64,000 bases of DNA from an uncultured Pseudohongiella sp. (GTDB lineage: Bacteria > Pseudomonadota > Gammaproteobacteria > Pseudomonadales > Pseudohongiellaceae): the NCBI GenBank assembly GCA_965262465.1, contig OZ253535.1, positions 3,573,704-3,637,703 on the forward strand, given 5' to 3'. The position numbers and the translations under genes are program-made. The notes under the pieces are model-generated. The model saw only the letters and a list, made by a program, of their open reading frames with translations, ran no database searches and had not been told where the DNA came from. This document shows, piece by piece, positions 39,296-54,438 of this stretch. Numbering within the stretch: the stretch's first letter is position 1; each line of letters opens with the position of its first letter.

Positions 39296-40690
39296 ATGTC
39301 AGACCACAGCACGAGAAAATTGCTATCGATTCTGCTTCTCCTTACGAGTCAGTTCGTATTCATTGGTGGAAGCGCCGGCCAGGAAGCGGCAGAAGCAGTT
39401 GGCACACCAGAGGCTGAAGGATTAGAAGAAGATCGCACGGCAGTCATGTATGTGGATATACCGTTGGTTTATGAAGCAGGTACAGATCCAGTGCTTCCTC
39501 CCTTCGACTACGGGGAAACCATCAACGGTGAACCAGACGAAGCTGCGCTGCAAACCTTAGCGAACTATGAAAACTCTCTACAAGATATTGAAGCCGCCGG
39601 CGGTGCCTGGGATCCCGCGCTCATAGAACAGCTTTCCGCGCTCGGAAACCTGCAACAACAACTTGGTGATTATGCGGCAGCGGTGGAGACATTCGATCGA
39701 GCCATGCACGTCAATCGCATCAATGGTGGTTTGCACACCACTGACCAAATCCCAATCGTTGAAGAACTCATTGAAAGTTACATGGCGGTGGAAGATTGGG
39801 AGAGTGCTGATCTGTATTACAACTATCTCTTTTTCATTCAAACCAAAGCCTTTGGTCCAGAAGATCCTCGAATGATTCCGGTGTTCGCGCAGCTGGCGGA
39901 ATGGCACATGCAAGCGTTCAGCTTGGGTTATGGCGGTGAAGCGCTGGGACTGCGACTAAGCAATGCGCAAATTCTGTTTGATGTTGCTGCCCGCATGGTG
40001 TTTCTACATTTTGGTAGTAGCGATGAGCGCTTTGTGCCTTATCTGCGCAATATCGCTGACTCTGCATACTTGGTTGCGCAAAACCCGGAGATCATGTCGG
40101 CCATTGATCGGGCTACGTTTCGCAATACTCAAGAGCTACTAGCAGCCAGATTGAATCAACCACAACCAGTCGCGCCCGCTGGATACCGGGTGGGAGAAAG
40201 TGCATTGCAAGAAGTCGTAGCCGCATACGAGCGGGCAGGCGATGATGTTTTTGCCTTGGCAGAAGCCCATGCCAATTTGGGTGATTGGTACATAGTATTT
40301 GAACGTCGACGCATTGCTGATGAGCATTACAAGCAAGCGTGGGACTTGTTAGCCGAGCAGGAAAACGGGGAAGAGCTGCTCAATCGTCTGTTTGGTCAAG
40401 TTACTCCACTCCCTACTTTTGTCACCGAACCTCGCGCCATTCTGCGGCGCGGAACTGAGCTGTTGTCTCCTGCAGATCTGCAGGAAGGCATGGCTGATCT
40501 TAGCTTCACCGTTACACGTAATGGTTCAGTAAGAAATGTTGTATTACTGACAGAAGAGACTCCCGAGAATACCGGTCAAGTAACAAGAGTTGCTCGCGAA
40601 TTACGCCAAAGCCGGTTCCGCCCAATAGTGGTTGATGGCGCGGCGGTCGAGTCCGATGACAACCTCGTTAGAATCCGGTTTTGGTACTAA
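39296..40690 (+). CDS. exported or anchored helical-repeat protein with a TonB-C-like C-terminal domain
   Basis: N-terminal signal or anchor RKLLSILLLLTSQFVFIGGSAG. The central region is helical and TPR-like. The C-terminus GMADLSFTVTRNGSVRNVVLLTEE...VTRVARELRQSRFRPIVVDGAAVESDDNLVRIRFWY follows the TonB_C pattern (G.v.v.f.v...G.v.nv.v......l..aa..a....rf.P....G.pv......v.i.F). Confidence 0.5.
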   Translation: MSDHSTRKLLSILLLLTSQFVFIGGSAGQEAAEAVGTPEAEGLEEDRTAVMYVDIPLVYEAGTDPVLPPFDYGETINGEPDEAALQTLANYENSLQDIEAAGGAWDPALIEQLSALGNLQQQLGDYAAAVETFDRAMHVNRINGGLHTTDQIPIVEELIESYMAVEDWESADLYYNYLFFIQTKAFGPEDPRMIPVFAQLAEWHMQAFSLGYGGEALGLRLSNAQILFDVAARMVFLHFGSSDERFVPYLRNIADSAYLVAQNPEIMSAIDRATFRNTQELLAARLNQPQPVAPAGYRVGESALQEVVAAYERAGDDVFALAEAHANLGDWYIVFERRRIADEHYKQAWDLLAEQENGEELLNRLFGQVTPLPTFVTEPRAILRRGTELLSPADLQEGMADLSFTVTRNGSVRNVVLLTEETPENTGQVTRVARELRQSRFRPIVVDGAAVESDDNLVRIRFWY

Positions 40691-40951
40691 TTTTAACTGG
40701 TTAGAGGTAGCATCGACGGTGTCGGAGCTTCTGTTGTTAAGCAAAGATTAAGGGGTTTTTGTCTACTGTTACGTAGAATATTTTGCAGGTCTGGAATTGA
40801 CTGCGCGGCAGGCTTGAAAAGCCGCGATTGGTCGCTAAAAAGCGCCCAAAAGAGTCGATCTTCGGATTATGTGAAATAAGTAGTTATTTCGTTTAAGCGC
40901 CTTGTTGAGTGGGCTTTTCACTCTGTAGGCCAGGCAGTGAGATTGAAAGCA

Positions 40952-42148
40952 ATGCATCGATTTAAAGTGTTAATAGTGAGCGTATTAGGCTTGGTCCTGG
41001 TGGCATGCCAGTCTAGCCAAAGCAGCACTAGTAGCAGCATGCCGATGCCTCCATCTGCATCTTCCAGCAGCAGTTCCAGCAGTCCAAGTATGCCATCGAG
41101 CAGTAGCTCAAGCAGTTCCAGCCAGAGCAGCTCGCAATCCAGTTCTTCAAGCCAGTCTCAGTCCAGCCAATCCAGCAGTAGCTCGAGCTCCAGCTCGTCT
41201 TCACAAGGCAGCCAGTCGGCAAGTACGGGAGCATCAATTCCCACTGCAAATCTGCCAACTTCCAGCCAACAAGGACAGAGCAGCAGTCAGGCATCAAGCA
41301 GTCAATCGGGCCAGCAGCCCGGCGGACAAGATAGCCGCAGCAGCTCAATTCCTGGAGATCAGCAGCAAGGTGGGGGACAGTCGTCATCCACCACAAGTGG
41401 CCAGGAACCGGGCCAGGCAGCAGGAACCGAGTCTCGATCACCTGGCGAACAGGGAAATGGAGGCCAAAGTGGGAGAGATGGCTCCACTGGAGACCTAAAT
41501 AGTGGTCAAAGTGGGAGTCAGGGCCAATCTGGCGGCGTTTTAGGGCGGCCAAGTGGGAATTACAGCCTGGAAAACTTGCCTGGCGGCAGCCAAAGTGGGA
41601 CAGATAGCCAGCAAACTGCTGGTGGCGGTGGCCAGCAACAGCAGAGTCCAGGAGGATCTGATGGTCGGCAACAAGTCCCTGGTGGGTCAAGTGGTCAATC
41701 CACTGCCAGCACGGGAGGCGCATCAACTGCCGCAGAACGTGCAGCTATTTTGGATGAACGGTTACGCCGCGGATATGAAACATTTGATGGCTTTATATTG
41801 AGTGAACGTGAGCGTGCTCAAAATGAAAGCAATGCCGCGGGCAGTGTTGCCATCGGCGGTGATGCTGGCGGCGGTGGCGGCGGTCAAAACCAACCACAAA
41901 CTATGGAAGAAGCAAGCTCGTCTACTCCGACTTCTGGAGTGGTTGCGGCCACTGCGAATTCAATGCCTTCTTCCAGTCAGGAAGAAGTTGAAACCTTCCC
42001 TCCACCTGATGACATTCCAAGTGGACGGGATGACGATGTAGTTGCGCGGCAGATTCGAGAAGCCGCGATGACAGAACCAGACCCAGAATTGCGCGAAGCA
42101 CTTTGGGAACAATACAGAGTTTACACAGGTATTGGTGACGAACAATGA
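40952..42148 (+). CDS. extremely Ser/Gln/Gly-rich lipoprotein with an ordinary-composition C-terminal domain
   Basis: Signal and lipobox MHRFKVLIVSVLGLVLVAC. About 250 aa are low complexity (poly-Ser, then SGQ/GGQ-rich). The C-terminal part AAERAAILDERLRRGYETFDGFILSERERAQ ... DDVVARQIREAAMTEPDPELREALWEQYRVYTGI has normal composition. ATG 40952 was chosen over the GTG at 40937. Confidence 0.6.
   Translation: MHRFKVLIVSVLGLVLVACQSSQSSTSSSMPMPPSASSSSSSSSPSMPSSSSSSSSSQSSSQSSSSSQSQSSQSSSSSSSSSSSQGSQSASTGASIPTANLPTSSQQGQSSSQASSSQSGQQPGGQDSRSSSIPGDQQQGGGQSSSTTSGQEPGQAAGTESRSPGEQGNGGQSGRDGSTGDLNSGQSGSQGQSGGVLGRPSGNYSLENLPGGSQSGTDSQQTAGGGGQQQQSPGGSDGRQQVPGGSSGQSTASTGGASTAAERAAILDERLRRGYETFDGFILSERERAQNESNAAGSVAIGGDAGGGGGGQNQPQTMEEASSSTPTSGVVAATANSMPSSSQEEVETFPPPDDIPSGRDDDVVARQIREAAMTEPDPELREALWEQYRVYTGIGDEQ
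41015..41215 (+). repeat. low-complexity Ser-codon tract (AGC/AGT/TCN) inside the lipoprotein gene
   Basis: Encodes SSTSSSMPMPPSASSSSSSSSPSMPSSSSSSSSSQSSSQSSSSSQSQSSQSSSSSSSSSSSQGSQS. Lower-grade Q/G/S-rich sequence continues to about 41720. Confidence 0.85.
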
Positions 42149-43329
42149 GAATGCCTTTGAAGCAGTTTTTTGGAATTTTACTGTTGGCGTTGTTTACCAC
42201 GGCATGCGCCACTCACACCGTTAAGACCACTTCGTACACACCCGTTGTGCAAAACAGTCAGGACGTTCCTGAAGATTTGCTTTTAGACGTGGGCGTATCG
42301 ATTTTTGATCCAGGTCTCGATGAGTTGGATGACGATCAAGAAGAAGTGACTAATGGGCAGATCCGAGTAGCGGAAGCACGTTATGCGCCTTATTTGCTGT
42401 CGGAGACTTTGCAGCGTTCTGCCAATTGGGGAATCGTGCGTTTAATGCCGAATGCGAGTAGCCCGATGGATGTGCTCGTTACAGGTACGATCTTAGAGTC
42501 CAATGGCGAATCAATGGCGGTACGAGTCGAAGTGAAAGACTCGAGAGGACAGCTCTGGTTCACCAAGGAATATCAAGAAGTCATTAGCCAGTTTAGCTAC
42601 GACGCACAACAGCGGCAGAAAAGCGATCCGTTCCAAGTAATCTACAACAAGATCGCTAACGATTTGTTGGCGTATCGAGAATCAAATCTCGATAGCCAAG
42701 ACATTCGAGAAATTCGCACCGTATCTGAAATGTTGTTTGCACAACGTTTTTCAGAAGCAGCGTTTTCTGACTATCTGCAAGTTGACCGCGACGGCAACTA
42801 TCAACTGGCCGCACTGCCTGCAGAAAATGATCCTTTATTAAATCGAATTCAAGACATTCGTGAACGTGACTTCATGTTCATCGATACAGTGCAGGATTAC
42901 TACGCAACTTATGTTCGGCAGATGCGTTTGCCTTACGATTCTTGGCGCGAACAGAGTTATCACGAAACCATTACTCTTAGAGAGTTAGAAGCGTCAGCAC
43001 GACGTCGTTTTATCGCCGGTACGGCAGCTGTAATTGGCGGCCTGGCTGCTGCTACACAGGGTGGTACATACGGTGCACAAGCGAGTGGTGCAGTTGGTGT
43101 AGGAGCAGGCGCGTATCTCATCAAGAGTGGATTCGATCGACAAGCAGAAGCGCGAATGCATATGGAGGCTCTGGAAGAGCTTGGCCAATCATTAGAAAAC
43201 GCTGTTGCTCCGCAAGTGATTACTCTCGACGATAGAACAATCACACTGTCTGGTTCAGTTGAAGAACAGTACGACCAGTGGCGTGAAATTCTGGCAGACC
43301 TCTATGCCGAAGAATTAGGTCAGTTGTAA
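42145..43329 (+). CDS. lipoprotein of unknown function with a Gly-zipper hydrophobic segment
   Basis: Lipobox LALFTTAC. ATGA overlap with the upstream stop. Late hydrophobic Gly-rich segment FIAGTAAVIGGLAAATQGGTYGAQASGAVGVGAGAYLI. Confidence 0.6.
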   Translation: MRMPLKQFFGILLLALFTTACATHTVKTTSYTPVVQNSQDVPEDLLLDVGVSIFDPGLDELDDDQEEVTNGQIRVAEARYAPYLLSETLQRSANWGIVRLMPNASSPMDVLVTGTILESNGESMAVRVEVKDSRGQLWFTKEYQEVISQFSYDAQQRQKSDPFQVIYNKIANDLLAYRESNLDSQDIREIRTVSEMLFAQRFSEAAFSDYLQVDRDGNYQLAALPAENDPLLNRIQDIRERDFMFIDTVQDYYATYVRQMRLPYDSWREQSYHETITLRELEASARRRFIAGTAAVIGGLAAATQGGTYGAQASGAVGVGAGAYLIKSGFDRQAEARMHMEALEELGQSLENAVAPQVITLDDRTITLSGSVEEQYDQWREILADLYAEELGQL

Positions 43330-43387
43330 CGATTTAATTAAAGGCTGAGAAATCGGCAAGTGATGGACACAGCCGGTAGACCTGCAC

Positions 43388-44935
43388 ATGTCAGAGAACG
43401 AACTCAACAATACAGATCAATCTGCTCTGGGTAATGCTGACCAATTAAGTGAAGCAGAGCGCATTGCGCAACAAATAGCGCCTCCCAAAAGTCAGAAACC
43501 TTCTCCCATAATGTGGTTAGGCCTCGGCGGTCTGTTGATCGTCGCGTTGCTGGTAATTTTCGTTCTGCCTTCCTTAGTCACCGAGTATGAATTACCGCTT
43601 GAGCGCCGCACGGAAGTTGCTAACACCGTGGTTCCCGCTACAACGGCTGAGCCAGAAGTCACAATATCTCCTTTCGAAGAAGCGCAGCGAGCCCTGCAGC
43701 GCAAAGATGCACAAGATACCTTGGCTGAATTGTTGGACCTGCAGTCAGAACTCGATCTGCTCGAAGTTAGTCAGTGGGGACAAGAAGCGTACGATGCGGC
43801 TTTGCAAGAAGCTTCTATTGGTGATGAGTACTACCGTACCCAAGATTTTCTCTTAGCTACAGAGTCTTATGCGAGAGGCAGAGATGGGCTTACGGAATTA
43901 GTCGAGTCAACGCCCGAAGTACTTGCGAGAATTTTGATTGATGCACAAAACGCCTTGAGTGCCGCTGATTCCGATTTAGCACAAGACCGTTTCTCACTGG
44001 CTCTAGTACTTGACTCAAACAATGAAACTGCACAAATCGGTTTGGAACGAGCCCAAGCGTTGGATGAAGTGACCCGCTTAATGGCAGAGGCGGACGATCT
44101 ATTTGAAGACGGTGAATTGGAAGCTGCGAGAGAGTTGTATGATCAGATTATTCAACTCGACGGCTACAACGAAGCAGCACCAGAAAAGATTGCAGCGGTT
44201 GATGCACAACTTAGAGAAAACGAATTTTCTCGCATCATGTCCGAAGGCTTCGCATTACTTGAAGCAGATGATCCTGAACAAGCTATCGCAACATTTCAAC
44301 GCGCAGCAAATCTGGGAATTAATCAAGACCAGGCACAAGCTGCTATTGTGCAAACCGAAACACAGGTTGCCAATTCACAAATCAATGCACTACGCGCGCA
44401 AATCGATTCTGCTGAAGCAAGTGAAATGTGGGCAGATGCGGTAACCGCCTATGACGGTGTGCTGGCGATTGATCCGAATCTCACGTTTGCATTGGAAGGT
44501 AGAGTCAATGCAAACCAACGCGCCAATTTAGATGCCTTCTTGGTTAACGCCATTACCAACCCAGAGCGGTTCGGAGAAGACGATGTGTTTGAAGAAACGC
44601 GGGGTTACTACTTCGTTGCGCGTGATCTTCCTGACCCAGGTCCTCGATTGGAATCGCAGCTCGATGAGTTAGAACAACTTCTGATTGATTCTCAAATTCC
44701 AATTGAAGTGAGTTTAACTTCAGACAATCTCACTGATGTGACCTTGTTGCGAATAGGAAACATAGGTCCGTTTGAACAGCACACTTTATCTCTCAAGCCC
44801 GGACGCTATGTTGCAGTAGGAAAACGAGCAGGCTTTCGCGATGTAAGAGAAGAGTTTGTAGTGGGGTTTGGACAAACTCCTGATGCAGTAGTTGTTCGAT
44901 GCACTGAGCGCGTGGTCGGCGCAAGCGGACGATAA
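43388..44935 (+). CDS. bitopic membrane protein with a periplasmic TPR-like repeat region
   Basis: One TM segment (IMWLGLGGLLIVALLVIFVLPSLV), then repeated A/L/E/Q-rich helical pairs (e.g. FEDGELEAARELYDQIIQLDGYNEAA, EADDPEQAIATFQRAANLGINQDQA, EMWADAVTAYDGVLAIDPNLTFA). Confidence 0.6.
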   Translation: MSENELNNTDQSALGNADQLSEAERIAQQIAPPKSQKPSPIMWLGLGGLLIVALLVIFVLPSLVTEYELPLERRTEVANTVVPATTAEPEVTISPFEEAQRALQRKDAQDTLAELLDLQSELDLLEVSQWGQEAYDAALQEASIGDEYYRTQDFLLATESYARGRDGLTELVESTPEVLARILIDAQNALSAADSDLAQDRFSLALVLDSNNETAQIGLERAQALDEVTRLMAEADDLFEDGELEAARELYDQIIQLDGYNEAAPEKIAAVDAQLRENEFSRIMSEGFALLEADDPEQAIATFQRAANLGINQDQAQAAIVQTETQVANSQINALRAQIDSAEASEMWADAVTAYDGVLAIDPNLTFALEGRVNANQRANLDAFLVNAITNPERFGEDDVFEETRGYYFVARDLPDPGPRLESQLDELEQLLIDSQIPIEVSLTSDNLTDVTLLRIGNIGPFEQHTLSLKPGRYVAVGKRAGFRDVREEFVVGFGQTPDAVVVRCTERVVGASGR

Positions 44936-47012
44936 AGCTGTGACAAACTCAGATCACAACTCAACAGATAATGGGGCACTTGACCCCATAGTTCCGATTG
45001 ACTTCACGCCACATGAAGTCAAAGCGAAAAAATTCACTTATCAGTTCCATTGGTTTCACGCAGTGGTTGCAGTCTTTGTACTGCTGTCATCTGTGTCGGG
45101 CTGGTTCGTACTGACGGCGAAATCAGTTTTTGTAGAAGTAGATCCAATCACCGCGTCGATAGAAATTGAGGGTGGGCTGAATTTTCGCTTGGGTCAGCGT
45201 TACCTGATACGTGCAGGCTCATACGAGATCACGCTGCGCAACGAGGGCTATCACGACAGCGTCACTAGCCTCATAGTGGGTTCCGATGCTGCGCAGACTC
45301 ATCCGTTTACCATGAGAAAATTGCCTGGATTGGTAAGCATCAACACCATCGCCATGACCGGCGCTCGTGTGCAAATCGATGGCGTGGATATTGGTGAGAC
45401 ACCACTGGTAGATGTGCCAGTCGAACCCGGAGAGCGCCAGCTCACAATCAGTAATGATCGTTATCTGGACTATGGCACCACCATAGAAATAGAAGGTCGT
45501 TCAGTTCCCCAAACTTTCGAAGCAACCTTAGAACCCGCTTGGGCAACCTTGTCGTTTACCACTTCCCCGGCTGGCGCTGACATCATCGTCGACGGTGAGA
45601 CTGTCGGCCAGACTCCGTTTAATGCAGAAATTCTGCAAGGTGAGCGGGATGTCACATTGAAGCTTGCTGGCCATAAAGCATGGCAGGAAGAGTTTGATGT
45701 CATTGCCGGCGAAGATTTTGTGGTTCCCTCAATCAACCTGGAACCGGCCGATGGCTTGGTGTTTATTCAGAGCAATCCTTCAGCTGCCAATGTCACGATA
45801 GGTGGAGAATTTCAGGGCCTAACACCACTTGAAGTAGCGTTAGCTCCGGACCAGAACCATGAACTGACCTTCTTCAAAAACGGCTATGAAATGACTCGCA
45901 GCACAGTGCGGACTGCCCCCAATGAAGAAAAGTCTGTTGTTGTTTCTCTGAGTCCGGTTACTGCCAGTGTGCAGATCGTGAGTGAGCCGGCAGATGCTGA
46001 GCTCTACATAAATGGAGAATTGTTGGGCTTGGCGAATCAGACTGTGGAGTTGATGGCGGTCAGTCAACAAATCGAGATTCGTAAAGAAGGTTACGTCCCT
46101 TATAACACCGAGTTCACATCCCGCCCCGGTTTGGATCAGGTCATACGAGTTACGTTAAAGTCGCTAGAGCAAGCGCGCCTGGAACAGATACAACCGGTGA
46201 TCACTACCGTTGCAGGGCAGTCATTGAAATTGTTCTATCCAGGTGACTTCACCATGGGCGCATCGCGCAGAGAAGCTGGCCGACGTCCGAATGAAGCGCT
46301 ACGAGATATTAAGCTGGAACGACCGTTCTATATTGGTTACCAAGAGGTCACAAACGCACAATATCGATTGTTCGATGGAGAGCATAACTCCGGCACCATA
46401 CAAGGGCTTACTCTTAACAACGAATCACAGCCCGTCGTTCGCGTAACCTGGGATCAGGCTGCTCTGTACTGTAATTGGTTAAGTGAACAGGAAGGGCTAC
46501 CGGTCTTTTATCAAGTCGAAGGCGAGGAAGTAGTTGGTTTTAATCCTGAGTCAACTGGCTATCGCCTACCTACCGAAGCGGAATGGGCTTGGATCGCTCG
46601 AACCGATGGCACTGGCAACACCTTAAAGTACCCTTGGGGTACTCAACTTCCACCACCGGAAAACGCCGGCAATTTTGGTGATGTAACAGCACAAGCCTAT
46701 CTAGGCGAAGTGATGTTTGACTACAACGATGGTTATTTCGCCACTGCACCCGTTGGATCTTTTGCTGCTAACCACTATGACATTTTTGACATGGCAGGTA
46801 ATGCATCAGAGTGGGTACACGACTATTACGGTTCTGCAGGAAGTCTCGGTGTAGAGATAGATCCGTTAGGACCGGAACTTGGACAATTTCATACCATCCG
46901 TGGCTCGAGTTGGGCGCATGGTGCGATAACAGAAATGCGATTGTCATTTCGTGATTTTGGTGTAGAGCCAAGGGATGACGTTGGCTTTCGCGTTGCAAGA
47001 TATCTCGAATAA
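44892..47012 (+). CDS. membrane-anchored protein with 5 PEGA-like repeats and a C-terminal FGE-sulfatase (SUMF1/GldK-like) fold domain
   Basis: TM segment FHAVVAVFVLLSSVSGWFVLTA. Five repeats of the type TLSFTTSPAGADIIVDGETVGQTPF...L..G...V.L...G. C-terminal FTMGASRRE...RPFYIGYQEVTNAQYRLF...RLPTEAEWAW...GNASEWVHD...IRGSSWAH. The start is either TTG 44892 (overlapping upstream) or GTG 44940. Confidence 0.8.
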   Translation: MFDALSAWSAQADDKAVTNSDHNSTDNGALDPIVPIDFTPHEVKAKKFTYQFHWFHAVVAVFVLLSSVSGWFVLTAKSVFVEVDPITASIEIEGGLNFRLGQRYLIRAGSYEITLRNEGYHDSVTSLIVGSDAAQTHPFTMRKLPGLVSINTIAMTGARVQIDGVDIGETPLVDVPVEPGERQLTISNDRYLDYGTTIEIEGRSVPQTFEATLEPAWATLSFTTSPAGADIIVDGETVGQTPFNAEILQGERDVTLKLAGHKAWQEEFDVIAGEDFVVPSINLEPADGLVFIQSNPSAANVTIGGEFQGLTPLEVALAPDQNHELTFFKNGYEMTRSTVRTAPNEEKSVVVSLSPVTASVQIVSEPADAELYINGELLGLANQTVELMAVSQQIEIRKEGYVPYNTEFTSRPGLDQVIRVTLKSLEQARLEQIQPVITTVAGQSLKLFYPGDFTMGASRREAGRRPNEALRDIKLERPFYIGYQEVTNAQYRLFDGEHNSGTIQGLTLNNESQPVVRVTWDQAALYCNWLSEQEGLPVFYQVEGEEVVGFNPESTGYRLPTEAEWAWIARTDGTGNTLKYPWGTQLPPPENAGNFGDVTAQAYLGEVMFDYNDGYFATAPVGSFAANHYDIFDMAGNASEWVHDYYGSAGSLGVEIDPLGPELGQFHTIRGSSWAHGAITEMRLSFRDFGVEPRDDVGFRVARYLE

Positions 47013-47056: not shown

Positions 47057-47881
47057 ATGAAGCAAGGCTCGCTTTACGAAACATTTTTCCAACTAGTAGC
47101 ACTGATCTTTTGTGTGATCATTGTGCATGCAACCTATGTCACCGTGATCCGGCCTAATGCCGATCTCATTCAAGAGCAGCAAACACTTCTGCAGCAGCAA
47201 GATGAAAACTTTGTTCCGGAACGGTCTGTATTCATCATTCTTCGAGATTTCGAACAAGAAACATGCATCATCTTAATGTTCTGGGCTCTGTTCATTATAG
47301 GAATGAAAGCACAGCAAACACTGAAGCAACGTTCTCTATTAGACCGAACACTTATTCAAGTTAATCAGGGCATGAGTATATTGCCCGAAGACGCAAGAAA
47401 TTATGCACGTCCCGTACAAGCACTGCCGGAAAGCGAACAGGATTTCCTGTTAGCCAGGGCGATCACTGCAGGCCTGCATCGCTTTCAAAGTACGCGCAAT
47501 ATTCAGGATGTATCCAACACGGTTAAAGATACATGTGAGACTGAAGCTGACCGAATGGAAACCGAGTTATCGCTGGTGCGATACATCGCTTGGGCCATTC
47601 CTTCTATTGGGTTCTTGGGCACCGTGCGCGGTATCGGTACAGCATTGGGGCAGGCATACCAGGCAGTAAGCGGCGATATCGTGGGGGTGACAGTCAGCCT
47701 GGGCGTGGCATTTAACTCAACATTTGTTGCTCTGGTAGTGAGCATTTTTCTGATGTTCCTGTTGCACCAGCTGCAGCAGTTACAGGATAGATTAGTACTG
47801 GACTGTCAAAACTATTGTGATGAACGGCTTATTCGCCATCTCCAAGTTCCTGATTCGGAATCTGAATTAGCAACCACGTGA
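47057..47881 (+). CDS. MotA/TolQ/ExbB-family proton channel protein
   Basis: 274 aa with two N-terminal TM segments, a cytoplasmic loop, then the family signature YIAWAIPSIGFLGTVRGIGTALGQA and a final TM segment VSLGVAFNSTFVALVVSIFLMFLL. Confidence 0.8.
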   Translation: MKQGSLYETFFQLVALIFCVIIVHATYVTVIRPNADLIQEQQTLLQQQDENFVPERSVFIILRDFEQETCIILMFWALFIIGMKAQQTLKQRSLLDRTLIQVNQGMSILPEDARNYARPVQALPESEQDFLLARAITAGLHRFQSTRNIQDVSNTVKDTCETEADRMETELSLVRYIAWAIPSIGFLGTVRGIGTALGQAYQAVSGDIVGVTVSLGVAFNSTFVALVVSIFLMFLLHQLQQLQDRLVLDCQNYCDERLIRHLQVPDSESELATT

Positions 47882-47905: not shown

Positions 47906-49249
47906 ATGAGCTTTAAAGTCATCGAGCTAAACGACAAAGCCATTAGTGTTGGCGATGAAACGGGAGTGATTATTCGCAGTCCCGGCTTTGCTTTGGCAGA
48001 TGGAAGCGAAGTGCTACTCGGTGAACAAGCGGAAAAACAGGCGCGGTTAAAGCCAACCAATAGTTACAACAAATATTGGCAAGAACTTAATCTCGATCCC
48101 ATCGAGCATGGCAATAACTTTCGCCACCATGCCGATATCGCGTTTGCCCATCTGCAACACCTGGCCGAAGAGGCTGATGTGGGTGCTGATGTAGTAATTG
48201 CAGTACCAGGCAGTTTTTCTCGACAACAACTTTCAATACTTCTCGGACTTTCCCAGCACAGCCCATTCAATATCAGCGGCATTGTCGATTCAGCATTGGC
48301 TGCGGCGCTTGCGTCAGCCAGAACAAGCAATGTTTTGTATGCCGATCTGCAGTTACACCAGGTAGTCATAACGAAACTCACTGCAAAAGAGAATCAACTA
48401 AGTACCAGCACGACAGTGCAGATTCCTGGAGTAGGTAGTCAGAATTTCACTGACCTGGTCATGCAGTTGGCTACGGGTATGTTCATTCAGCAATGTCGCT
48501 TTAATCCGCAACATGACGCTGAATCCGAACAGCAACTTTATAACGAACTTCCGCAGTGGCTTGCGCAAGCGCAACAAGACGGCAATCTAATTCTAGAGTT
48601 AAACGCCGGCGATACGATTCATACGGCAAAAATGCCAATGGATAGTTTGGTAAATAGCCTCAATGGTCATTACAAGACTATCAACAAACAACTTGCTGCG
48701 ATGGCGACAGATCATGATACTCAGTTAGTCGTCAGCAGTTCACTCGCTGAGTTACCTGGTTTTAATGCCAGCCTTCCTGCGTCACTGGACTTGATCATTA
48801 TTGATGACAATGCCGTGAATGAAACTTGTCTTGAGTATCGCGAGTTAATCACTGCGACGGATCAGGGCATAAGTTTGGTAAGTGCATTACCACTTCCAGA
48901 GGGTGGAACTACACCAAACCACAGTGCTGACCAAAAGACTGTAGCGCCTACTCATGTTTTACATGGTAGCCAGGCATTGCCGGTGAACAAGATCAGTATT
49001 GAGAACCACCAAACTATCAACGGCCATAGTGAAGCTGTAAATGTTCTCGCGTTATCGATTGCAGACCTGCCAGAAAATCTTGGCAACATCGCTAAGGAAA
49101 ATGATGGCGTCTATTTTGATAGTGGAGAACTTTCTTATCTACTTAATGGCGTTGCAACAAGCGGTGCGCGCAAGCTCGCCGTAGGCGACCGAATTCAGTT
49201 TAGTGGCAGTAACGATGTGTTGACCTTGATAAGGGTGCGCGATGTCTAG
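47906..49249 (+). CDS. divergent Hsp70/actin-fold protein with degenerate nucleotide-binding motifs
   Basis: VLLGEQAEKQARLKPTNSY, VVIAVPGSFSRQQLSILLGLSQHSPFNISGIVDSALAAALA and GSQNFTDLVMQLATGMFIQQ align with DnaK [61 protein letters not shown] and GGEDFDSRLINYLVEEF. Phosphate-1 (IDLGTTNS becomes IELNDKAIS) and phosphate-2 (DLGGGTFD becomes DLQLHQVV) are not conserved. Confidence 0.6.
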   Translation: MSFKVIELNDKAISVGDETGVIIRSPGFALADGSEVLLGEQAEKQARLKPTNSYNKYWQELNLDPIEHGNNFRHHADIAFAHLQHLAEEADVGADVVIAVPGSFSRQQLSILLGLSQHSPFNISGIVDSALAAALASARTSNVLYADLQLHQVVITKLTAKENQLSTSTTVQIPGVGSQNFTDLVMQLATGMFIQQCRFNPQHDAESEQQLYNELPQWLAQAQQDGNLILELNAGDTIHTAKMPMDSLVNSLNGHYKTINKQLAAMATDHDTQLVVSSSLAELPGFNASLPASLDLIIIDDNAVNETCLEYRELITATDQGISLVSALPLPEGGTTPNHSADQKTVAPTHVLHGSQALPVNKISIENHQTINGHSEAVNVLALSIADLPENLGNIAKENDGVYFDSGELSYLLNGVATSGARKLAVGDRIQFSGSNDVLTLIRVRDV

Positions 49250-50468
49250 CGAACACAGAGCAGCCAGACGTAAATTTAATCCAATAAGCCTGTCTTTTTT
49301 GGACGTTATGTTCTGTGGTTTTGGCGCGGTGATTCTGATTTTCCTTATCCTCGATCACAACAGCACAGTCTCTGATGTGGAATACAACCCGGACTTGCTT
49401 GCTGAGATCAATCTACTGGAAGAGGAAGTGGAGGAAGGGCAACTCGGATTAGTACGTATAAGAAATACCCTATCGGACGTCGACTTCGATGTGGTTGAAG
49501 CGCAAGGCCTGGCACGCCAGATTCAGGAACAGATCGATACTTTTCTGCAGGAGTTGGCGGCGCTCGAAAATTCCAGCGTGGCAACGGTGGAAGATGTGGA
49601 ACAACTGCGAGCAGACGTGCAACAGCTCGAAGAAGAACTGCTTCGCTTGCAGGCCAGTGCTCTGGAACAGGAAGGATCTAGCGTGCGGCAGTTTATTGGG
49701 GATGGCCAGCGACAGTATTTATCCGGGCTCTATCTCGGTGGTCAGCGCATTCTTATCGTAGTGGATGCATCCGCCAGTATGCTGGATGACACCATCGTCA
49801 ACATCATTCGTACCAGCCTCAGGGCTGATGTATATAAGAAAGAAGCGCCAAAATGGCAACGTGTTGTCAAAATTGTCGATTGGATTACCACCCAGCTGCC
49901 TATTATCAGTCGTTATCAGATTTATGCCTTCAATCAAGAGGTGCGGGCCGCCATTCCAGGTACGGAGCAATCTTGGCTAGAAGTAGCGGATCGGGACCAG
50001 CTAAATGAAGCAGTTGAACAGGTGATGGATTTGGCGCCGGAAGGTGGCACGAACTATGAGCGGCTGTTTCGTGAGGTCGCCAACATGTCGCCCCCGCCGG
50101 ACAATATCTTTCTAATTACCGATGGGCTGCCAACGATCGATGATCGCGGGGCCAGGGATCCGCTTATCTCACCAAGAGACAGGTTGGAATTATATGAAGA
50201 CGCAGTCGGGGAGTTATTACAGGGTATTCCGGTCAATATTATATTGATGCCATTGGAAGGTGATCCCAGTGCCGCAGCGGCATTTTGGGAGTTGGCCCAA
50301 TATTCCAGAGGCTCGCTGATTTCCCCGTCCAAAGATTGGCCCGGCGGTGCGTCGGCGGTGGAAGAAGACGAACTGGATGAACCGCGGGATGATAATTCTG
50401 TCGCCCGGGTAGAAAGTACAGAAGAGATTTCGGAAGATTTAGGAGTGTCCTTTCCAACGAATATTTAA
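49242..50468 (+). CDS. bitopic protein: ExbD/TolR-like Asp-containing TM helix, periplasmic coiled coil, vWA domain (paralog 1)
   Basis: N-terminus RAARRKFNPISLSFLDVMFCGFGAVILIFLIL (compare ExbD TPFIDVMLVLLIIF). Heptad-rich residues about 45-145. vWA MIDAS elements VVDASASM, GGTNY, ITDGLP. 8-nt overlap with the upstream gene. Confidence 0.7.
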   Translation: MSSEHRAARRKFNPISLSFLDVMFCGFGAVILIFLILDHNSTVSDVEYNPDLLAEINLLEEEVEEGQLGLVRIRNTLSDVDFDVVEAQGLARQIQEQIDTFLQELAALENSSVATVEDVEQLRADVQQLEEELLRLQASALEQEGSSVRQFIGDGQRQYLSGLYLGGQRILIVVDASASMLDDTIVNIIRTSLRADVYKKEAPKWQRVVKIVDWITTQLPIISRYQIYAFNQEVRAAIPGTEQSWLEVADRDQLNEAVEQVMDLAPEGGTNYERLFREVANMSPPPDNIFLITDGLPTIDDRGARDPLISPRDRLELYEDAVGELLQGIPVNIILMPLEGDPSAAAAFWELAQYSRGSLISPSKDWPGGASAVEEDELDEPRDDNSVARVESTEEISEDLGVSFPTNI

Positions 50469-50484
50469 GTTGGGTAACTAAGAC

Positions 50485-51495
50485 ATGAGCAAGAAAAACC
50501 GCAGAGAAACAGATTCGTTTACCGTGTCTTTCCTGGACGTGGCGTCCTGTGGTTTCGGTGCCATGATCATTCTCTTGATGATCACTAAAAACTCCGACCC
50601 TGTGACCTTGGAGATCTCCGACCTGACCCCAGAGGCCACGGTTACTGAGCTGCAGGAGCAACTATTTGAGATACGTGGTGAAACCACGATTTTGAATCGG
50701 GAACTCAATGCCAAACATGAGCAACTGTCATCCCTGACAGAGCGAATTGCTCGCCTTCGCCGCGATTTGAATGACGTGCAAGGGCGCTTCAATGCCTCGA
50801 ATCAACTCTCAGATGAAATCACTGACGAAGTGGGCCGACTGGCCATCGCACGGCAAACCCTGACGGAGGAAATGCAGCGCTTGTTAGCCAATGTCGCCGC
50901 GCCGGAAGACAACGCCATTGGCGGGGTCCCGGTGGACAGCGAGTACATCATCTTCGTGATTGATACTTCGGGCAGTATGGCCAATACCCCCGGAAACTGG
51001 GACAAAATGCTCGAGGTCATCGACAATACCTTGAACGTCTATCCTGAAGTGAAGGGCATCCAGGTCATGAATGACATGGGTGACTACATGTTTAACACCT
51101 ACCGCAACGAGTGGATTCCGGATACCCCGGGAAGACGTAATCAGATCATTTCCACCTTGCGCTCTTGGCAGCCATACAGTAATAGTAGCCCTGTAGAAGG
51201 TGTGACACGCGCGATTAATACCTTTTATTCCCCGGATAAGAAAATTAGTATCTATGTACTGGGGGATGATTTTCAGCCAGGCGGGTCTATACAGGACGTG
51301 CTAAACACTATTGACCGCATCAATGTGGAAGATGCCAATGGAGACCGCTTGGTTCGCATTCATGGTATCGGATTCCCAACTATATTTATGGGGCCTCCGC
51401 GCTTTCGACAAAGCGCCTATCGCTACACCAATTTAATGCGTGAAATGACGCAACGAAATGGTGGTACATTTGTAGGATTAAACGCGACTCAATGA
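50485..51495 (+). CDS. bitopic protein: ExbD/TolR-like Asp-containing TM helix, periplasmic coiled coil, vWA domain (paralog 2)
   Basis: N-terminus KKNRRETDSFTVSFLDVASCGFGAMIILLMI. Coiled-coil-like residues about 45-135. vWA FVIDTSGSM ... VLGDD. Same architecture as the preceding gene. Confidence 0.7.
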   Translation: MSKKNRRETDSFTVSFLDVASCGFGAMIILLMITKNSDPVTLEISDLTPEATVTELQEQLFEIRGETTILNRELNAKHEQLSSLTERIARLRRDLNDVQGRFNASNQLSDEITDEVGRLAIARQTLTEEMQRLLANVAAPEDNAIGGVPVDSEYIIFVIDTSGSMANTPGNWDKMLEVIDNTLNVYPEVKGIQVMNDMGDYMFNTYRNEWIPDTPGRRNQIISTLRSWQPYSNSSPVEGVTRAINTFYSPDKKISIYVLGDDFQPGGSIQDVLNTIDRINVEDANGDRLVRIHGIGFPTIFMGPPRFRQSAYRYTNLMREMTQRNGGTFVGLNATQ

Positions 51496-51550
51496 GCCAA
51501 GCTGGTGGTCTCAGCGTATAGATGACTGATCAGCCTTGCGAGTGAAGAAC

Positions 51551-52189
51551 ATGAATAGGAATAGACGCAACACAACAATTCAACGAACCCACACTCTGCA
51601 ACATGTGGTTTTGCTCCTGTGTGTTGGATTGCTGGCGAGCTGTGGTGTAAACAATGTCACCATCCAGGGTGAGTTCCCTACGCCTAACATATCCAAGTTG
51701 CCTTTGAGTGTCGCTGTCTACTATGACGACGCCCTGAAAGACTTCACTTACATGGAGTATTCCGAAACAGGCACCGAAGAGTTCAACATTGCGAGTGGTC
51801 AATCTCATGTGCAGTTGTTTAACGCTGTACTGCCTGCCATGTTCAACCAGGTTGTGGAAGTAACTCAGGTTGAAGAAGCTGGCACTCGACAAGTAGATGC
51901 GGTGTTTATGCCGCTGATTGAAGAGTTTCAACTCGCACTGCCAGCAAAAACCAAACTCGATGTGTATGAAGTTTGGATCAAATACAACATGCGCTTGGTA
52001 ACTCCGGAAGGAGATTACATCGCTGATTGGGTGTTAACGTCATACGGCAAAACACCAACTGACACATTTCGTTCTGCTGAAGCAGGTATTAATGAAGCCG
52101 CTGTGGTTGCCTTAAGAGATTTGGCCTCCAGCTTTTCTTTGACCTTTTCACAAGTTCCTGAGGTACGTGACTGGCTTGCGAGTTTGTAG
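51551..52189 (+). CDS. lipoprotein of unknown function
   Basis: Signal and lipobox LLLCVGLLASCG. ATG 51551 was chosen inside the TTG-initiated track ORF. No family recognised. Confidence 0.55.
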   Translation: MNRNRRNTTIQRTHTLQHVVLLLCVGLLASCGVNNVTIQGEFPTPNISKLPLSVAVYYDDALKDFTYMEYSETGTEEFNIASGQSHVQLFNAVLPAMFNQVVEVTQVEEAGTRQVDAVFMPLIEEFQLALPAKTKLDVYEVWIKYNMRLVTPEGDYIADWVLTSYGKTPTDTFRSAEAGINEAAVVALRDLASSFSLTFSQVPEVRDWLASL

Positions 52190-52214
52190 CAAGTTATTCA
52201 GTAGGGGGTTGGTT

Positions 52215-52886
52215 ATGATGAGTGAGCGATACACAACAACTGTTAAGTTATTTTTCGTTCTGGGACTAGGACTTCTAGCCGCTTGTACCAGCACCACTGT
52301 TGATGAATTTAGACAAGGCGAGACTGGCATCGAAAGTGATGAGACAGTGGTGATTCTTGGAAGACGCCAAGCCAGCGACTATGAAACGGATTCAGGCTTT
52401 GTAGAGTGTGTTGGCGATCGCATGGCCCGCGGTGAAAACGCCATCAACATTGTTCCCGAACAAGAATTTATCGATGCTATGTTCCCGTGGTTTGAACCAC
52501 GTACTGCTCCCTTGCGCACGCGCGATCTTGAACAGCTAATGGCTGAAGATGTAGTGGCAAGAAAAATGGGAGAGTTTGGAATTCGTTACATCGTGTGGGT
52601 GGATGGATTTACTGAAACCACTGATCGCCAAGGATCTATTTCTTGCACAATCGGACCAGGTGGCGGCGGATGCTTCGGCTTCGGCACTTGGGAAGATGAT
52701 GCAAATTTTGATGCACGCGTCTGGGACGTCGGGTCTTTAACCAATGTGGGTACAATTAATACCGATGCTTCAGGCCAGTCCTATCTGCCTGCCCTTGTGG
52801 TGCCTATACCACTCATTGCCAGAGTTGAAGCTAATGCCTGTAATCGCTTGGCCGCTCAGCTCAAACAGTTTGTAAACGGTAGTTAA
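52215..52886 (+). CDS. lipoprotein of unknown function
   Basis: MMSERYTTTVKLFFVLGLGLLAACTS has a lipobox. ATG 52215 is preceded by a GGGGG RBS. No family recognised. Confidence 0.55.
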   Translation: MMSERYTTTVKLFFVLGLGLLAACTSTTVDEFRQGETGIESDETVVILGRRQASDYETDSGFVECVGDRMARGENAINIVPEQEFIDAMFPWFEPRTAPLRTRDLEQLMAEDVVARKMGEFGIRYIVWVDGFTETTDRQGSISCTIGPGGGGCFGFGTWEDDANFDARVWDVGSLTNVGTINTDASGQSYLPALVVPIPLIARVEANACNRLAAQLKQFVNGS

Positions 52887-52920
52887 GGAATTAACTACCA
52901 ACCGATCGACAGGTGGCTTT

Positions 52921-54438
52921 ATGCATGTTCTAAGTCTGCGTAACTTGGGCGGTGCAATCATCGCGCAGTTTTCTCTTAAACAACTCTTCTTGATAGTCGT
53001 GGCATTTAGCTCTGCGTCTTTCTTAACGTCCTGTGCAGTTAATCCTGCCACCGGCAGTCCTAACTTGGTGCTAATGGGCGAAAACCGAGAGAAAGAAATC
53101 GGTTTGGAAGAACATGAAAAGGTGCTGGCAAGCCAACCCATTTTGCAAGACGAAGCACTGTTGGAATATGTCACCGAAGTGGGCAACCGAGTCGCTGCCG
53201 CTAGTCACCGTCCAGATTTGGAATACACGTTCACAATCATTGATAGTCCAGCCATCAATGCTATGGCACTACCAGGTGGATACGTGTATGTGAATCGCGG
53301 GCTGCTTACCTTCATGAATACCGAAGCAGAACTTGCTGCGGTAATAGCTCATGAGATTGGCCATATCACTGCACGACACGCTGTACAACAACAGGCCCGA
53401 GGAGCGCTGGCGAATGCTGCTGTTACTGTAGGTGGTTTTGTAACTGCAGTTGCAACAGGCAGTGGTTATGCCGGATCGCAAATAAGTCAGGTTGCTTCAA
53501 TTTGGGCACAAACCGGTTTGAGTGGTTTTGGCCGTGAAATGGAACTGGAGGCTGATAGTCTTGGTGCAGAGTATCTTCTCAAAGCGGGCTACGATCCTTC
53601 GGCGATGATTGAAGTGGTTACTGTGTTAAAGAACCAGGAAGACTTTAATCGCCTGACCACTGGTAGCGGTGGTGGTTACCATGGTTTGTTTGCAACTCAC
53701 CCTCGCAGTGATACCCGTCTGCAACAAGCCATCGCATCAGTAGGTAGTCTGGAAGAATCAGAAGCAACACTAACCGACGACAGTAAGTTCCGCGAACACA
53801 TAAATGGATTAGTGGTTGGTGAGAGTGCGGCCGCTCAACAACAGGATGAACGTAATCGTTACTACGAAACCACCCTCGGATACACCATGGTGTTTCCAGA
53901 TGAATGGAATGTTGAAAATTCCTTTACCACCGTAACTGGTGAAGAAGAAGGCATTGGCAGCTTACAAGTAGAAGCGAGACGACTGCGCGACAATATCGAG
54001 CCTCGGGTTTTTATTCGAGATAACCTCGGCATTACCAATCTGCAAAAATCAGAAGCACTATCCCAATTCCGATTACTTGGTCACACCGGAACCCATGTTT
54101 CACCGGAGACGGGAAACACCGAAAGAGTTGCAGTGATCTACCTGGGCCCGCGTGCATTTATATTCCGCGGAGATATTGCTGATGCCAGCGCTGTTGATGA
54201 AATCGATGAAGTGATGCTGGATTCCATTCGTAGTTTCCGCGCAATTCAACGGGGAGAAACCCTACTGGGTAGCGAATTGAAGCTGCGTTATGTGCAAGCC
54301 TCGGAATTCTTTGATTTCGCTGTGGTGGCTCAATCCAGCAAGATTGCCAATTATCCCGAGGAGACCTTGCGTTTGCTGAATGGATATTACCCCTCCGGCA
54401 ACCCGGAAGCGGGTGACTGGGTGAAGCTGGTCGAATAG
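52921..54438 (+). CDS. M48 family zinc metalloprotease, lipoprotein
   Basis: Lipobox FLTSCA. NAMALPGGYVYVNRGLL...ELAAVIAHEIGHITARH (HExxH) plus downstream ELEADSLG are typical of M48 (YcaL/LoiP/BepA type). It also carries a roughly 230-aa C-terminal extension of unknown type. Confidence 0.85.
   Translation: MHVLSLRNLGGAIIAQFSLKQLFLIVVAFSSASFLTSCAVNPATGSPNLVLMGENREKEIGLEEHEKVLASQPILQDEALLEYVTEVGNRVAAASHRPDLEYTFTIIDSPAINAMALPGGYVYVNRGLLTFMNTEAELAAVIAHEIGHITARHAVQQQARGALANAAVTVGGFVTAVATGSGYAGSQISQVASIWAQTGLSGFGREMELEADSLGAEYLLKAGYDPSAMIEVVTVLKNQEDFNRLTTGSGGGYHGLFATHPRSDTRLQQAIASVGSLEESEATLTDDSKFREHINGLVVGESAAAQQQDERNRYYETTLGYTMVFPDEWNVENSFTTVTGEEEGIGSLQVEARRLRDNIEPRVFIRDNLGITNLQKSEALSQFRLLGHTGTHVSPETGNTERVAVIYLGPRAFIFRGDIADASAVDEIDEVMLDSIRSFRAIQRGETLLGSELKLRYVQASEFFDFAVVAQSSKIANYPEETLRLLNGYYPSGNPEAGDWVKLVE

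Follow-up and report, generated by a model that had tools for sequence, protein, structure and literature searches.

Stalked vWA paralogs beside a TolQ-like gene in Pseudohongiella: candidate B-type subunits of a proton-driven motor with a proposed heterodimeric axle

Ion-driven motors of the 5:2 type (Mot, Ton, Tol, Agl, Gld/Por and Zor) power differing processes of the bacterial envelope, each being distinguished by the portion of its B subunit that lies in the periplasm. To our knowledge, all of the solved 5:2 motors (MotAB, ExbBD, TolQR and GldLM) have homodimeric B subunits. In Myxococcus one TolQ-like A subunit, AglR, works with two different B-type subunits, AglQ and AglS, and the Agl–Glt gliding machinery includes a protein of von Willebrand factor A (vWA) type, CglB, as a separate outer-membrane lipoprotein. 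The subject of this article is a pair of tandem genes, denoted H and I, in a stretch of 64,000 nucleotides (nt) from an uncultured Pseudohongiella sp. (assembly GCA_965262465.1, contig OZ253535.1, positions 3,573,704 to 3,637,703 of the forward strand), the whole of which is referred to here as the window; the genes of the surrounding cluster are likewise given letters. H and I encode membrane-anchored vWA paralogs and lie close to a TolQ-like gene, F. We hold it to be somewhat more probable than its opposite that H and I are two non-identical B-type subunits of a proton-driven motor of the 5:2 type, with F as the A-type subunit and a heterodimeric H·I axle.

Proteins of this kind have been predicted computationally as ‘TPH-vWA’ proteins (PMC12204202, Mol Biol Evol 2025), which according to the main text of that paper co-occur tightly with tolQ homologs in the absence of tolR or exbD, have a trans-pore helix resembling that of TolR and ExbD, in which an Asp is conserved, and are ‘predominantly found in heterologous pairs’ in Proteobacteria and Verrucomicrobia. 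The AlphaFold3 models presented there insert the helices in TolQ-like pentamers, the two Asp residues lying within the ring of Thr; in the passages on these proteins a co-occurring TPR gene is mentioned only for the other vWA family, and a function is not reported. The window agrees with this description in every stated feature, among them the vWA head, a single Asp-bearing transmembrane (TM) helix without the SHLS motif, an adjacent tolQ-like gene with no tolR, exbD or motB, and a heterologous pair, and the locus is a typical member of this previously predicted motor family, H and I having been matched to the published Idiomarina loihiensis seed family by its described features and not by sequence. 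The heptad-repeat stalk of H and I is a difference, since a coiled-coil stalk is not described in the passages on the predicted family; a term search of the main text returned no mention of a metal-ion-dependent adhesion site (MIDAS), Hsp70, FHA, PEGA or sulfatase. Literature searches on an Hsp70/FHA/MotA/vWA system, on PEGA/FGE/TolQ and on Pseudohongiella vWA proteins gave nothing relevant beyond this paper.

H and I are separated by a spacer of 16 nt, and there is an overlap of 8 nt between the H start codon and the stop of G, the gene upstream (Table 1). A pairwise BLASTP comparison aligned the two proteins with 22% identity over 251 columns (E=3e-10), so that their paralogy is beyond chance, and both have the same layout, viz. 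a basic N-terminal tail, one TM helix, a heptad-repeat stalk of ~90-100 residues and a vWA head. An earlier reading of the window made from its letters alone (hereafter the sequence-only reading) had described tandem paralogs of common layout with a near-identical opening of the TM helix, and this description holds, both open reading frames (ORFs) being present on the + strand with SLSFLDVMFCGFGAVILIF in H and TVSFLDVASCGFGAMIILL in I. In a search of a representative set of 1.84 billion proteins, orthologs of H fell into 282 clusters at 50% identity (E<=1e-30), and the duplication that gave rise to the pair is ancient and fixed. A tblastn search of the PLSDB plasmids with I found no homologs.

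The presumed A subunit, F, matches Pfam MotA_ExbB (PF01618, E=7.5e-16; a score of 58.5 bits, where the cut-off is 22.9) as well as the NCBIfam TolQ family, and its residues 127-263 were aligned to residues 80-220 of Escherichia coli TolQ (PDB 8ODT). In this alignment the two pore-lining threonines of F, T189 in GTV and T222 in NST, fall on those that TolQ has in GTV and IAT, and both are invariant in 50 diverse orthologs. No ExbD, TolR, MotB or OmpA-like gene was found among the cluster ORFs with Pfam and NCBIfam. An assignment of the locus to anti-phage defence of the Zorya type was considered and rejected, as the PADLOC match of F to ZorA is marginal (E=0.0025) and H and I give only coiled-coil noise.

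Each of the two paralogs has one predicted TM segment (residues 19-37 of H and 16-34 of I) behind a basic tail and an N-in topology, and the helix opens with PISLSFLDVMFCGFGAVILIF in H and SFTVSFLDVASCGFGAMIILL in I. When the two families are aligned together, every specified residue of the motif FLDxxxCGFGA (F, L, D, C, G, F, G, A) is invariant. Among the diverse metagenomic orthologs, D21, C25, G26 and G28 of H are present in 81/81 sequences, and F16, L17, D18, F24 and G25 of I in 65/65. The cysteine four residues past the TM Asp, found in all of these H sequences and as C22 in 64/65 of those of I, belongs to a small-residue motif, C-G-F-G-A, which has no counterpart in the E. coli ExbD and TolR sequences, and this residue could mark a dimer interface or an ion path. 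Neither helix contains a His or the SHLS motif of TonB and TolA.

The comparison with TolQ–TolR and ExbB–ExbD is one of a homologous A subunit in which both pore Thr are kept, and of a B subunit with an N-in single TM helix and an Asp in a Phi-Phi-D-V context (Phi, a hydrophobic residue). The locus differs from these systems in that H and I lack the TolR/ExbD periplasmic domain and have a long heptad stalk and a vWA head instead, in that two different B genes are present where those systems have one, and in that there is no separate transducer of the TolA/TonB type with an SHLS helix, though the product of gene A has a TonB_C-like domain. A role of H and I as B subunits is suggested by a TolQ-like F which keeps its proton-path residues and has no other partner, by the N-in single TM helix, by the invariant intramembrane Asp and by a weak local match to ExbD and TolR. 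The sequence-only reading had gone further and proposed a heteromeric B-subunit pair as the axle; the B-subunit part of that proposal is supported by the adjacent F, the lack of ExbD, TolR and MotB, and the invariant TM Asp, while the heterodimer is only suggested by the results described below.

Conservation of the locus was followed at several distances. A scan of genome contigs with a single-protein query returned only Pseudohongiellaceae, and the wider context comes from metagenome contigs, which were scanned with a divergent alignment and their ORFs classified by family hidden Markov models (HMMs), together with two contig look-ups. The order A to L is kept in all 80 Pseudohongiellaceae loci, with H followed by I in every one except a locus cut by a contig end, and also in many metagenomic loci; Microbulbifer guangxiensis and Parahaliea mediterranea carry the same module, again with H then I. 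In every diverse metagenomic locus with at least 600 nt downstream (69/69), the gene after that of H type is of I type, so the pair of paralogs predicted by the sequence-only reading, and not a single such gene per cluster, is what the loci contain. F lies upstream in 44/46 of the loci with room for it and F plus G in 37/46, a shortfall which is probably a matter of HMM sensitivity. In the most distant clade only F, G (with an FHA domain), H and I are kept together, with a TPR protein nearby. F-G-H-I is the core that does not vary from Pseudohongiellaceae to Microbulbifer, Parahaliea and a distant clade. One distant H-type protein comes from a Puniceicoccaceae genome (Verrucomicrobiota).

AlphaFold2 single-chain models of H and I were built on alignments of 50 sequences, and the vWA core reached a predicted local distance difference test (pLDDT) score of ~90 in H and ~80 in I. 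The H head is recognised by Pfam VWA_2 (30.3 bits, cut-off 27), and the I head scores below the cut-offs of VWA_2 and VWA (20.2 and 18.7 bits, respectively). Foldseek comparisons of both model heads with the PDB returned integrin I domains, ITIH1, CLCA1, BatA/B and the vWA domains of anthrax receptors, with best E-values to vWA domains of 4.6e-7 for H and 7e-7 for I, and on these models both heads are vWA folds.

The MIDAS motif DxSxS reads D175-A-S177-A-S179 in H and D160-T-S162-G-S164 in I. The sequence-only reading had noted these intact starts (DASAS and DTSGS) and the GGT and TDG elements of H, all of which are present, the latter two as G269-T270 in GGT and T293-D294-G295. It had also implied that the second paralog is without distal elements, which is incorrect, since I has an invariant D261 within ‘LGDD’ and an invariant S234 within ‘SNSSP’. 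In the topology of the models S234 stands two residues before the helix 236-247, as T270 of H stands before the helix 272-280, and we infer that S234 takes the place of the MIDAS Thr in I; T241 was rejected as a candidate for this position because its column is not conserved. A profile of the I head alone aligned ‘iifviDtsGsm’ with ‘IVFLIDGSGSI’ of integrin alpha-M, the aligned part being only the DxSxS region, and the full-length I profile was swamped by coiled-coil matches in the PDB. The likeness to the integrin alpha-I domain and its MIDAS consists of the same fold, of DxSxS aligned to the DGSGS of alpha-M, and of the full D-S-S-T-D set in H; the unlike feature is the invariant Ser of I where Thr is usual, as judged from the model topology.

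That the MIDAS residues would be kept across orthologs was a further expectation of the sequence-only reading, and it proved right fully for I and mostly for H. In the 65 diverse I sequences D160, S162, S164 and D261 are each invariant, and S234 reaches a column identity of at least 97% across the same 65 and is invariant in an alignment of 13 heads. In the 81 H sequences S177 and D294 are invariant and S179 is found in 74, whereas position 175 is D in 66, R in 8 and E in 7, and position 270 is T in 57, S in 9 and A in 15; conservation per position of the H site is put at 81-100%, and it was similar in 115 representatives. The substitutions include a coherent subclade with a degenerate MIDAS in H, E-A-S-G-G and G-G-A (Thr to Ala), in which the H head is no longer assigned to vWA by Pfam and the I head still scores. 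In the distant-clade metagenomic loci L083-L097 the H-type MIDAS is degenerate in this way, with all MIDAS residues kept in I. Judged by these alignments, the I head is the constant one of the pair. In the representative search, one protein (P0387) combines, at its N terminus, a membrane domain of the BlaR1-type M56 peptidase/sensor (Pfam Peptidase_M56, E=2.9e-17) with a vWA head of the H type, which implies that the H-type head is a mobile module used in other membrane sensors.

Between membrane and head, the family hydrophobicity profiles of both proteins show a heptad repeat that can be counted from the TM Asp. In H the position a falls at D21+28+7n and the repeat is continuous from D+28 to ~D+119; in I it falls at D18+28+7n and is continuous to ~D+93. 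Because the phase is the same, the two stalks can pair in register from the membrane outward. Charge pairs between positions g and e' were counted for parallel in-register dimers of 54 non-redundant loci, and the net number of favourable pairs was -1.19 for H·H, +0.26 for I·I and +1.85 for H·I. Among 11 register shifts of H·I, a shift of 0 scored highest, at 1.85, the others giving -1.13 to +0.83 (next best at +7), and control counts at non-interface position pairs gave -1.0 to +0.4. Cognate H·I partners scored 1.85 versus 0.85±0.24 for shuffled partners.

A natural fusion also joins the two heads. The protein P0339 (473 residues), from the representative search, has a signal peptide, an I-type head (HMM 139-334) and an H-type head (HMM 131-366), with neither TM helix nor stalk; it occurs on 5 contigs, one of them of 5.8 Mb, and since the order of the heads reverses the gene order it is not a read-through product. 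The strict 1:1 tandem occurrence, the shared heptad phase, the g-e' charges and this fusion together favour an H·I heterodimer over two homodimers, none of them being decisive.

In a rival reading, F would assemble with either of two alternative homodimeric axles, H2 or I2, giving two motor species working in parallel or on different partners. Such an arrangement would agree with the homodimeric B subunits of the solved motors, with the TM motif shared by H and I, by which either could fit the same pore, and with the roughly neutral g-e' score of I·I. We consider it unlikely nevertheless, given that H·H scores unfavourably and H·I best, that no locus has one type only, that nature has fused the two heads, and that MIDAS residues are lost in some H and never in I, a pattern which fits two roles in one complex.

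The AglR–AglQ/AglS system is like the proposed motor in that one A subunit has two different B subunits and a vWA protein is part of the machinery. It differs in that AglQ and AglS are short TolR-like proteins with no stalk or vWA head, and no Glt homologs were identified at this cluster. GldL–GldM and PorL–PorM share with the proposed motor the 5:2 composition, a single-TM B subunit and a long periplasmic extension to an outer-membrane-proximal complex, and gene E of the window encodes an FGE-sulfatase domain whose best match is GldK/PorK. Unlike the coiled coil and vWA head of H and I, GldM is a homodimer of immunoglobulin-like domains; GldL lies outside Pfam MotA_ExbB, and E is anchored in the inner membrane and has PEGA domains, rather than being a lipoprotein.

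Several results weigh against H and I as the paired axle of a motor. Pfam ExbD (PF02472) and MotB_plug (PF13677) gave no match to full-length H and I, or to their N-terminal 60 residues at E<=10, and a profile of the TM region found no ExbD, TolR or MotB in the PDB. With hhalign, SFLDVM of H was aligned on PFIDVM of E. coli ExbD (22-27, with D25; E=0.26) and on PLLDVL of E. coli TolR (with D23; E=0.18), i.e. on the right motif, over short segments and without significance. Homology of the TM helix to these proteins was accordingly rejected as a finding: there is no statistically significant sequence relationship of the TM region to ExbD, TolR or MotB, and by this measure H and I do not belong to those families, to which they would be analogous in function or related very distantly. 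In the single-chain models the TM and stalk regions come out as helices of low confidence, and the models have no TolR/ExbD fold or OmpA-like peptidoglycan-binding domain, the periplasmic part consisting of helices and the vWA domain. The g-e' analysis is crude, amounting to ~2 net pairs over 10 heptads with the register assumed. Between the TM Asp and the MIDAS Ser, H has a distance of 144-159 residues and I one of 138-149; these lengths are tightly bounded and co-vary (r=0.86), which would speak for H·I, but the correlation is inflated by shared phylogeny. The stalk of H exceeds that of I by 3-16 residues, and the distal stalk cannot for this reason be a simple continuous in-register coiled coil. 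Lastly, with the H MIDAS degenerate in some clades, the view that both heads bind ligand cannot be true of the family as a whole.

The lack of a significant sequence link to ExbD, TolR and MotB leads to the question of whether H and I are pore subunits at all. They could instead be a membrane-anchored vWA scaffold, of the BatA/BatB type, for a periplasmic complex of TPR proteins and lipoproteins, with F having another B partner or none. The aerotolerance (Bat) operons indeed have two adjacent membrane-anchored vWA paralogs and TPR partners, as this cluster does, and structures of BatA/BatB type (4jdu and 3ibs) are among the Foldseek matches. Bat operons, however, have MoxR and DUF58 and no MotA/TolQ, and neither MoxR nor DUF58 was found with Pfam among ORFs A-M of the window cluster; BatA and BatB also lack the TM Asp motif and the heptad stalk. 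A passive anchor would hardly account for a TM Asp that is invariant, together with C-G-x-G-A, in 146 sequences of the two families; both pore Thr are retained in F, which has no other partner in any locus; and the AlphaFold3 models described in the main text of PMC12204202 place such helices in the pore. We regard the scaffold as quite improbable on this evidence.

The gene between F and H in most loci, G, encodes a protein without a TM segment. As a single sequence G has no match in Pfam; its family profile matches the nucleotide-binding domain of SSB1, DnaK and Hsp70 in the PDB (SSB1, E=1e-9) as well as the FHA domains of Ki-67 and EmbR, and Pfam FHA is found in 10/31 family members (best E=1.6e-13). 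An FHA protein whose gene is translationally coupled to H and lies within the invariant F-G-H-I core, the distant clade included, could point to a trans-envelope sensor and not a force generator, in which binding of a ligand at the MIDAS would be relayed through stalk and F to G and a phospho-Thr pathway. Ion flux and work are favoured by the conservation of the proton-path residues (the TM Asp and both Thr rings), and no kinase or phosphatase was present among the cluster genes scanned; we think a sensor of this kind very improbable, although it is compatible with the motor model and does not exclude it.

Table 1. Positions in the window of the genes of the cluster and of the parts of H and I
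Feature	Position	Strand	Description
Upstream module A-E	39296..47012	+	ORFs with Pfam and NCBIfam matches; same order across loci
A	39296..40690	+	Secreted TPR protein, TonB_C-like C-terminus
B	40937..42148	+	Ser-rich lipoprotein; Ser/Gln/Gly low complexity, long poly-Ser tracts
C	within 39296..47012	+	Lipoprotein
D	within 39296..47012	+	Inner-membrane-anchored TPR protein
E	44892..47012	+	Single-pass, inner-membrane-anchored; 4 PEGA domains and FGE-sulfatase (GldK-like) domain
F	47057..47881	+	MotA/ExbB/TolQ-family membrane protein, 274 residues; presumed pentameric A subunit
G	47906..49249	+	447 residues; degenerate Hsp70 nucleotide-binding-domain-like (ASKHA) cytoplasmic protein, C-terminal FHA-like domain
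H (paralog 1)	49242..50468	+	ORF of 408 residues; N-in TM helix, stalk, vWA head, acidic tail
H TM motif S18-FLDVMFCGFGAV-I31	49293..49334	+	Putative proton-binding D21 (49302-49304), C25 (49314-49316)
H stalk (~residues 46-147)	49377..49682	+	AlphaFold2 helices 50-77, 82-110, 116-147
H vWA head (residues 165-367)	49734..50342	+	D175 (49764-49766), S177, S179 (49776-49778), T270 (50049-50051), D294 (50121-50123)
H acidic tail (residues 368-408)	50343..50465	+	Lineage-specific; 41 residues, 13 D/E, 2 K/R
I (paralog 2)	50485..51495	+	ORF of 336 residues; N-in TM helix, stalk, vWA head
I TM motif S15-FLDVASCGFGAM-I28	50527..50568	+	D18 (50536-50538), C22 (50548-50550)
I stalk (~residues 46-135)	50620..50889	+	Single AlphaFold2 helix 52-135
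I vWA head (residues 150-336)	50932..51492	+	D160 (50962-50964), S162, S164 (50974-50976), S234 (51184-51186), D261 (51265-51267)
Downstream module J, K, L	51536..54438	+	Lipoproteins J and K (unknown family) and L (M48 metallopeptidase)

The TonB_C-like end of A is sub-threshold in the window protein (E=0.2) and is matched in 4/8 orthologs (best E=1.8e-4); in several metagenomic loci A lies on the opposite strand downstream of J. B is conserved in position and poorly conserved in sequence. The FGE-sulfatase domain of E has its best NCBIfam match in GldK/PorK, the ring lipoprotein of type IX secretion, at E=5e-29, far below the family cut-off, and this likeness is a hint that E may act as a ring or scaffold close to the motor. 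Downstream of I, the lipoproteins J, K and L have the lipobox-like signals LLASC, LLAAC and LTSC, respectively, and L matches Pfam Peptidase_M48 (E=1.5e-38). In place of A-E and J-K, the core in the clade L083-L097 has as neighbours lipoproteins of the Gly-zipper and DUF4136 types and a TPR protein that is transcribed divergently. The sequence-only reading had suggested one of the co-encoded lipoproteins as a possible ligand; no J or K lipoprotein was detected with the family HMMs in the most distant clade, which weakens these two as a universal ligand. Most Pseudohongiellaceae loci have, immediately downstream of the module (54633-56438 (+) in the window), a gene for a GspE/PilB-type secretion ATPase with an MshEN domain, and in Parahaliea a related ATPase is on the opposite strand; this ATPase is probably a neighbour and not a component.

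H has one further part, the acidic tail that the sequence-only reading attributed to the first paralog alone. The tail is indeed there and I has none, and its length is 41 residues rather than the ~50 given in that reading; it is also not acidic to its end, which is a conserved DLGVSFPTNI. It is present only in H of the window and its eight closest relatives (L001-L008), i.e. in 9/157 sequences, and the full-length distant H orthologs, among the matches listed, all stop at query residue 367 or 368. With this restriction to the closest relatives, the tail was rejected as a core functional element. The hydrophobic motif DLGVSFPTNI which closes it may be a docking peptide rather than the end of a mere acidic spacer.

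In the mechanism that we propose, each B subunit would have a short basic tail in the cytoplasm, and its TM helix, with D21 in H or D18 in I followed by C-G-F-G-A, would insert in the F pentamer as a trans-pore helix like that of TolR, ExbD and MotB. Outside the membrane H and I would most likely pair in parallel and in register to form a heterodimeric coiled-coil stalk of ~12-15 nm, carrying two non-equivalent vWA heads into the periplasm. The MIDAS sites, that of I always intact and that of H dispensable in some clades, may hold a partner from the envelope module through a divalent cation, candidates being A and D with their TPR repeats, E with its PEGA and FGE domains, the lipoproteins C, J and K, and L, the M48 lipoprotein. 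As protons pass through F they would make the H·I axle turn or pull and so exert force on this partner, and G probably regulates or scaffolds the motor from the cytoplasm.

Taken to its full extent, this mechanism would be that of a rotary motor F5·(H·I) with an obligate heterodimeric axle and functionally asymmetric heads, in which the MIDAS ‘hand’ of I stays constant and H is an accessory head that varies. Joined by an Hsp70-like/FHA regulator in the cytoplasm and by a module of ~12 genes (TonB_C-like, TPR, PEGA/FGE, lipoprotein and M48 protease), it would make a hitherto uncharacterised proton-powered trans-envelope machine distinct from Ton, Tol-Pal, Agl-Glt and the type IX secretion system. 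This full version is offered tentatively, and we would place it somewhat below an even chance.

If this is true, the locus would provide the first obligate heterodimeric axle and a direct coupling of motor to adhesin without an adaptor of the TonB/TolA type, the B subunit itself carrying an integrin-like MIDAS head on a long stalk, in two conserved and non-identical copies. To the prediction of PMC12204202, as set out in its main text, the present analysis adds the F-G-H-I core with its Hsp70-like/FHA protein, the MIDAS asymmetry, the stalk charges favouring H·I and the natural fusion of the two heads. The family is widespread in marine Gammaproteobacteria and Verrucomicrobiota, and the whole module is carried by cultured hosts, Microbulbifer and Parahaliea.

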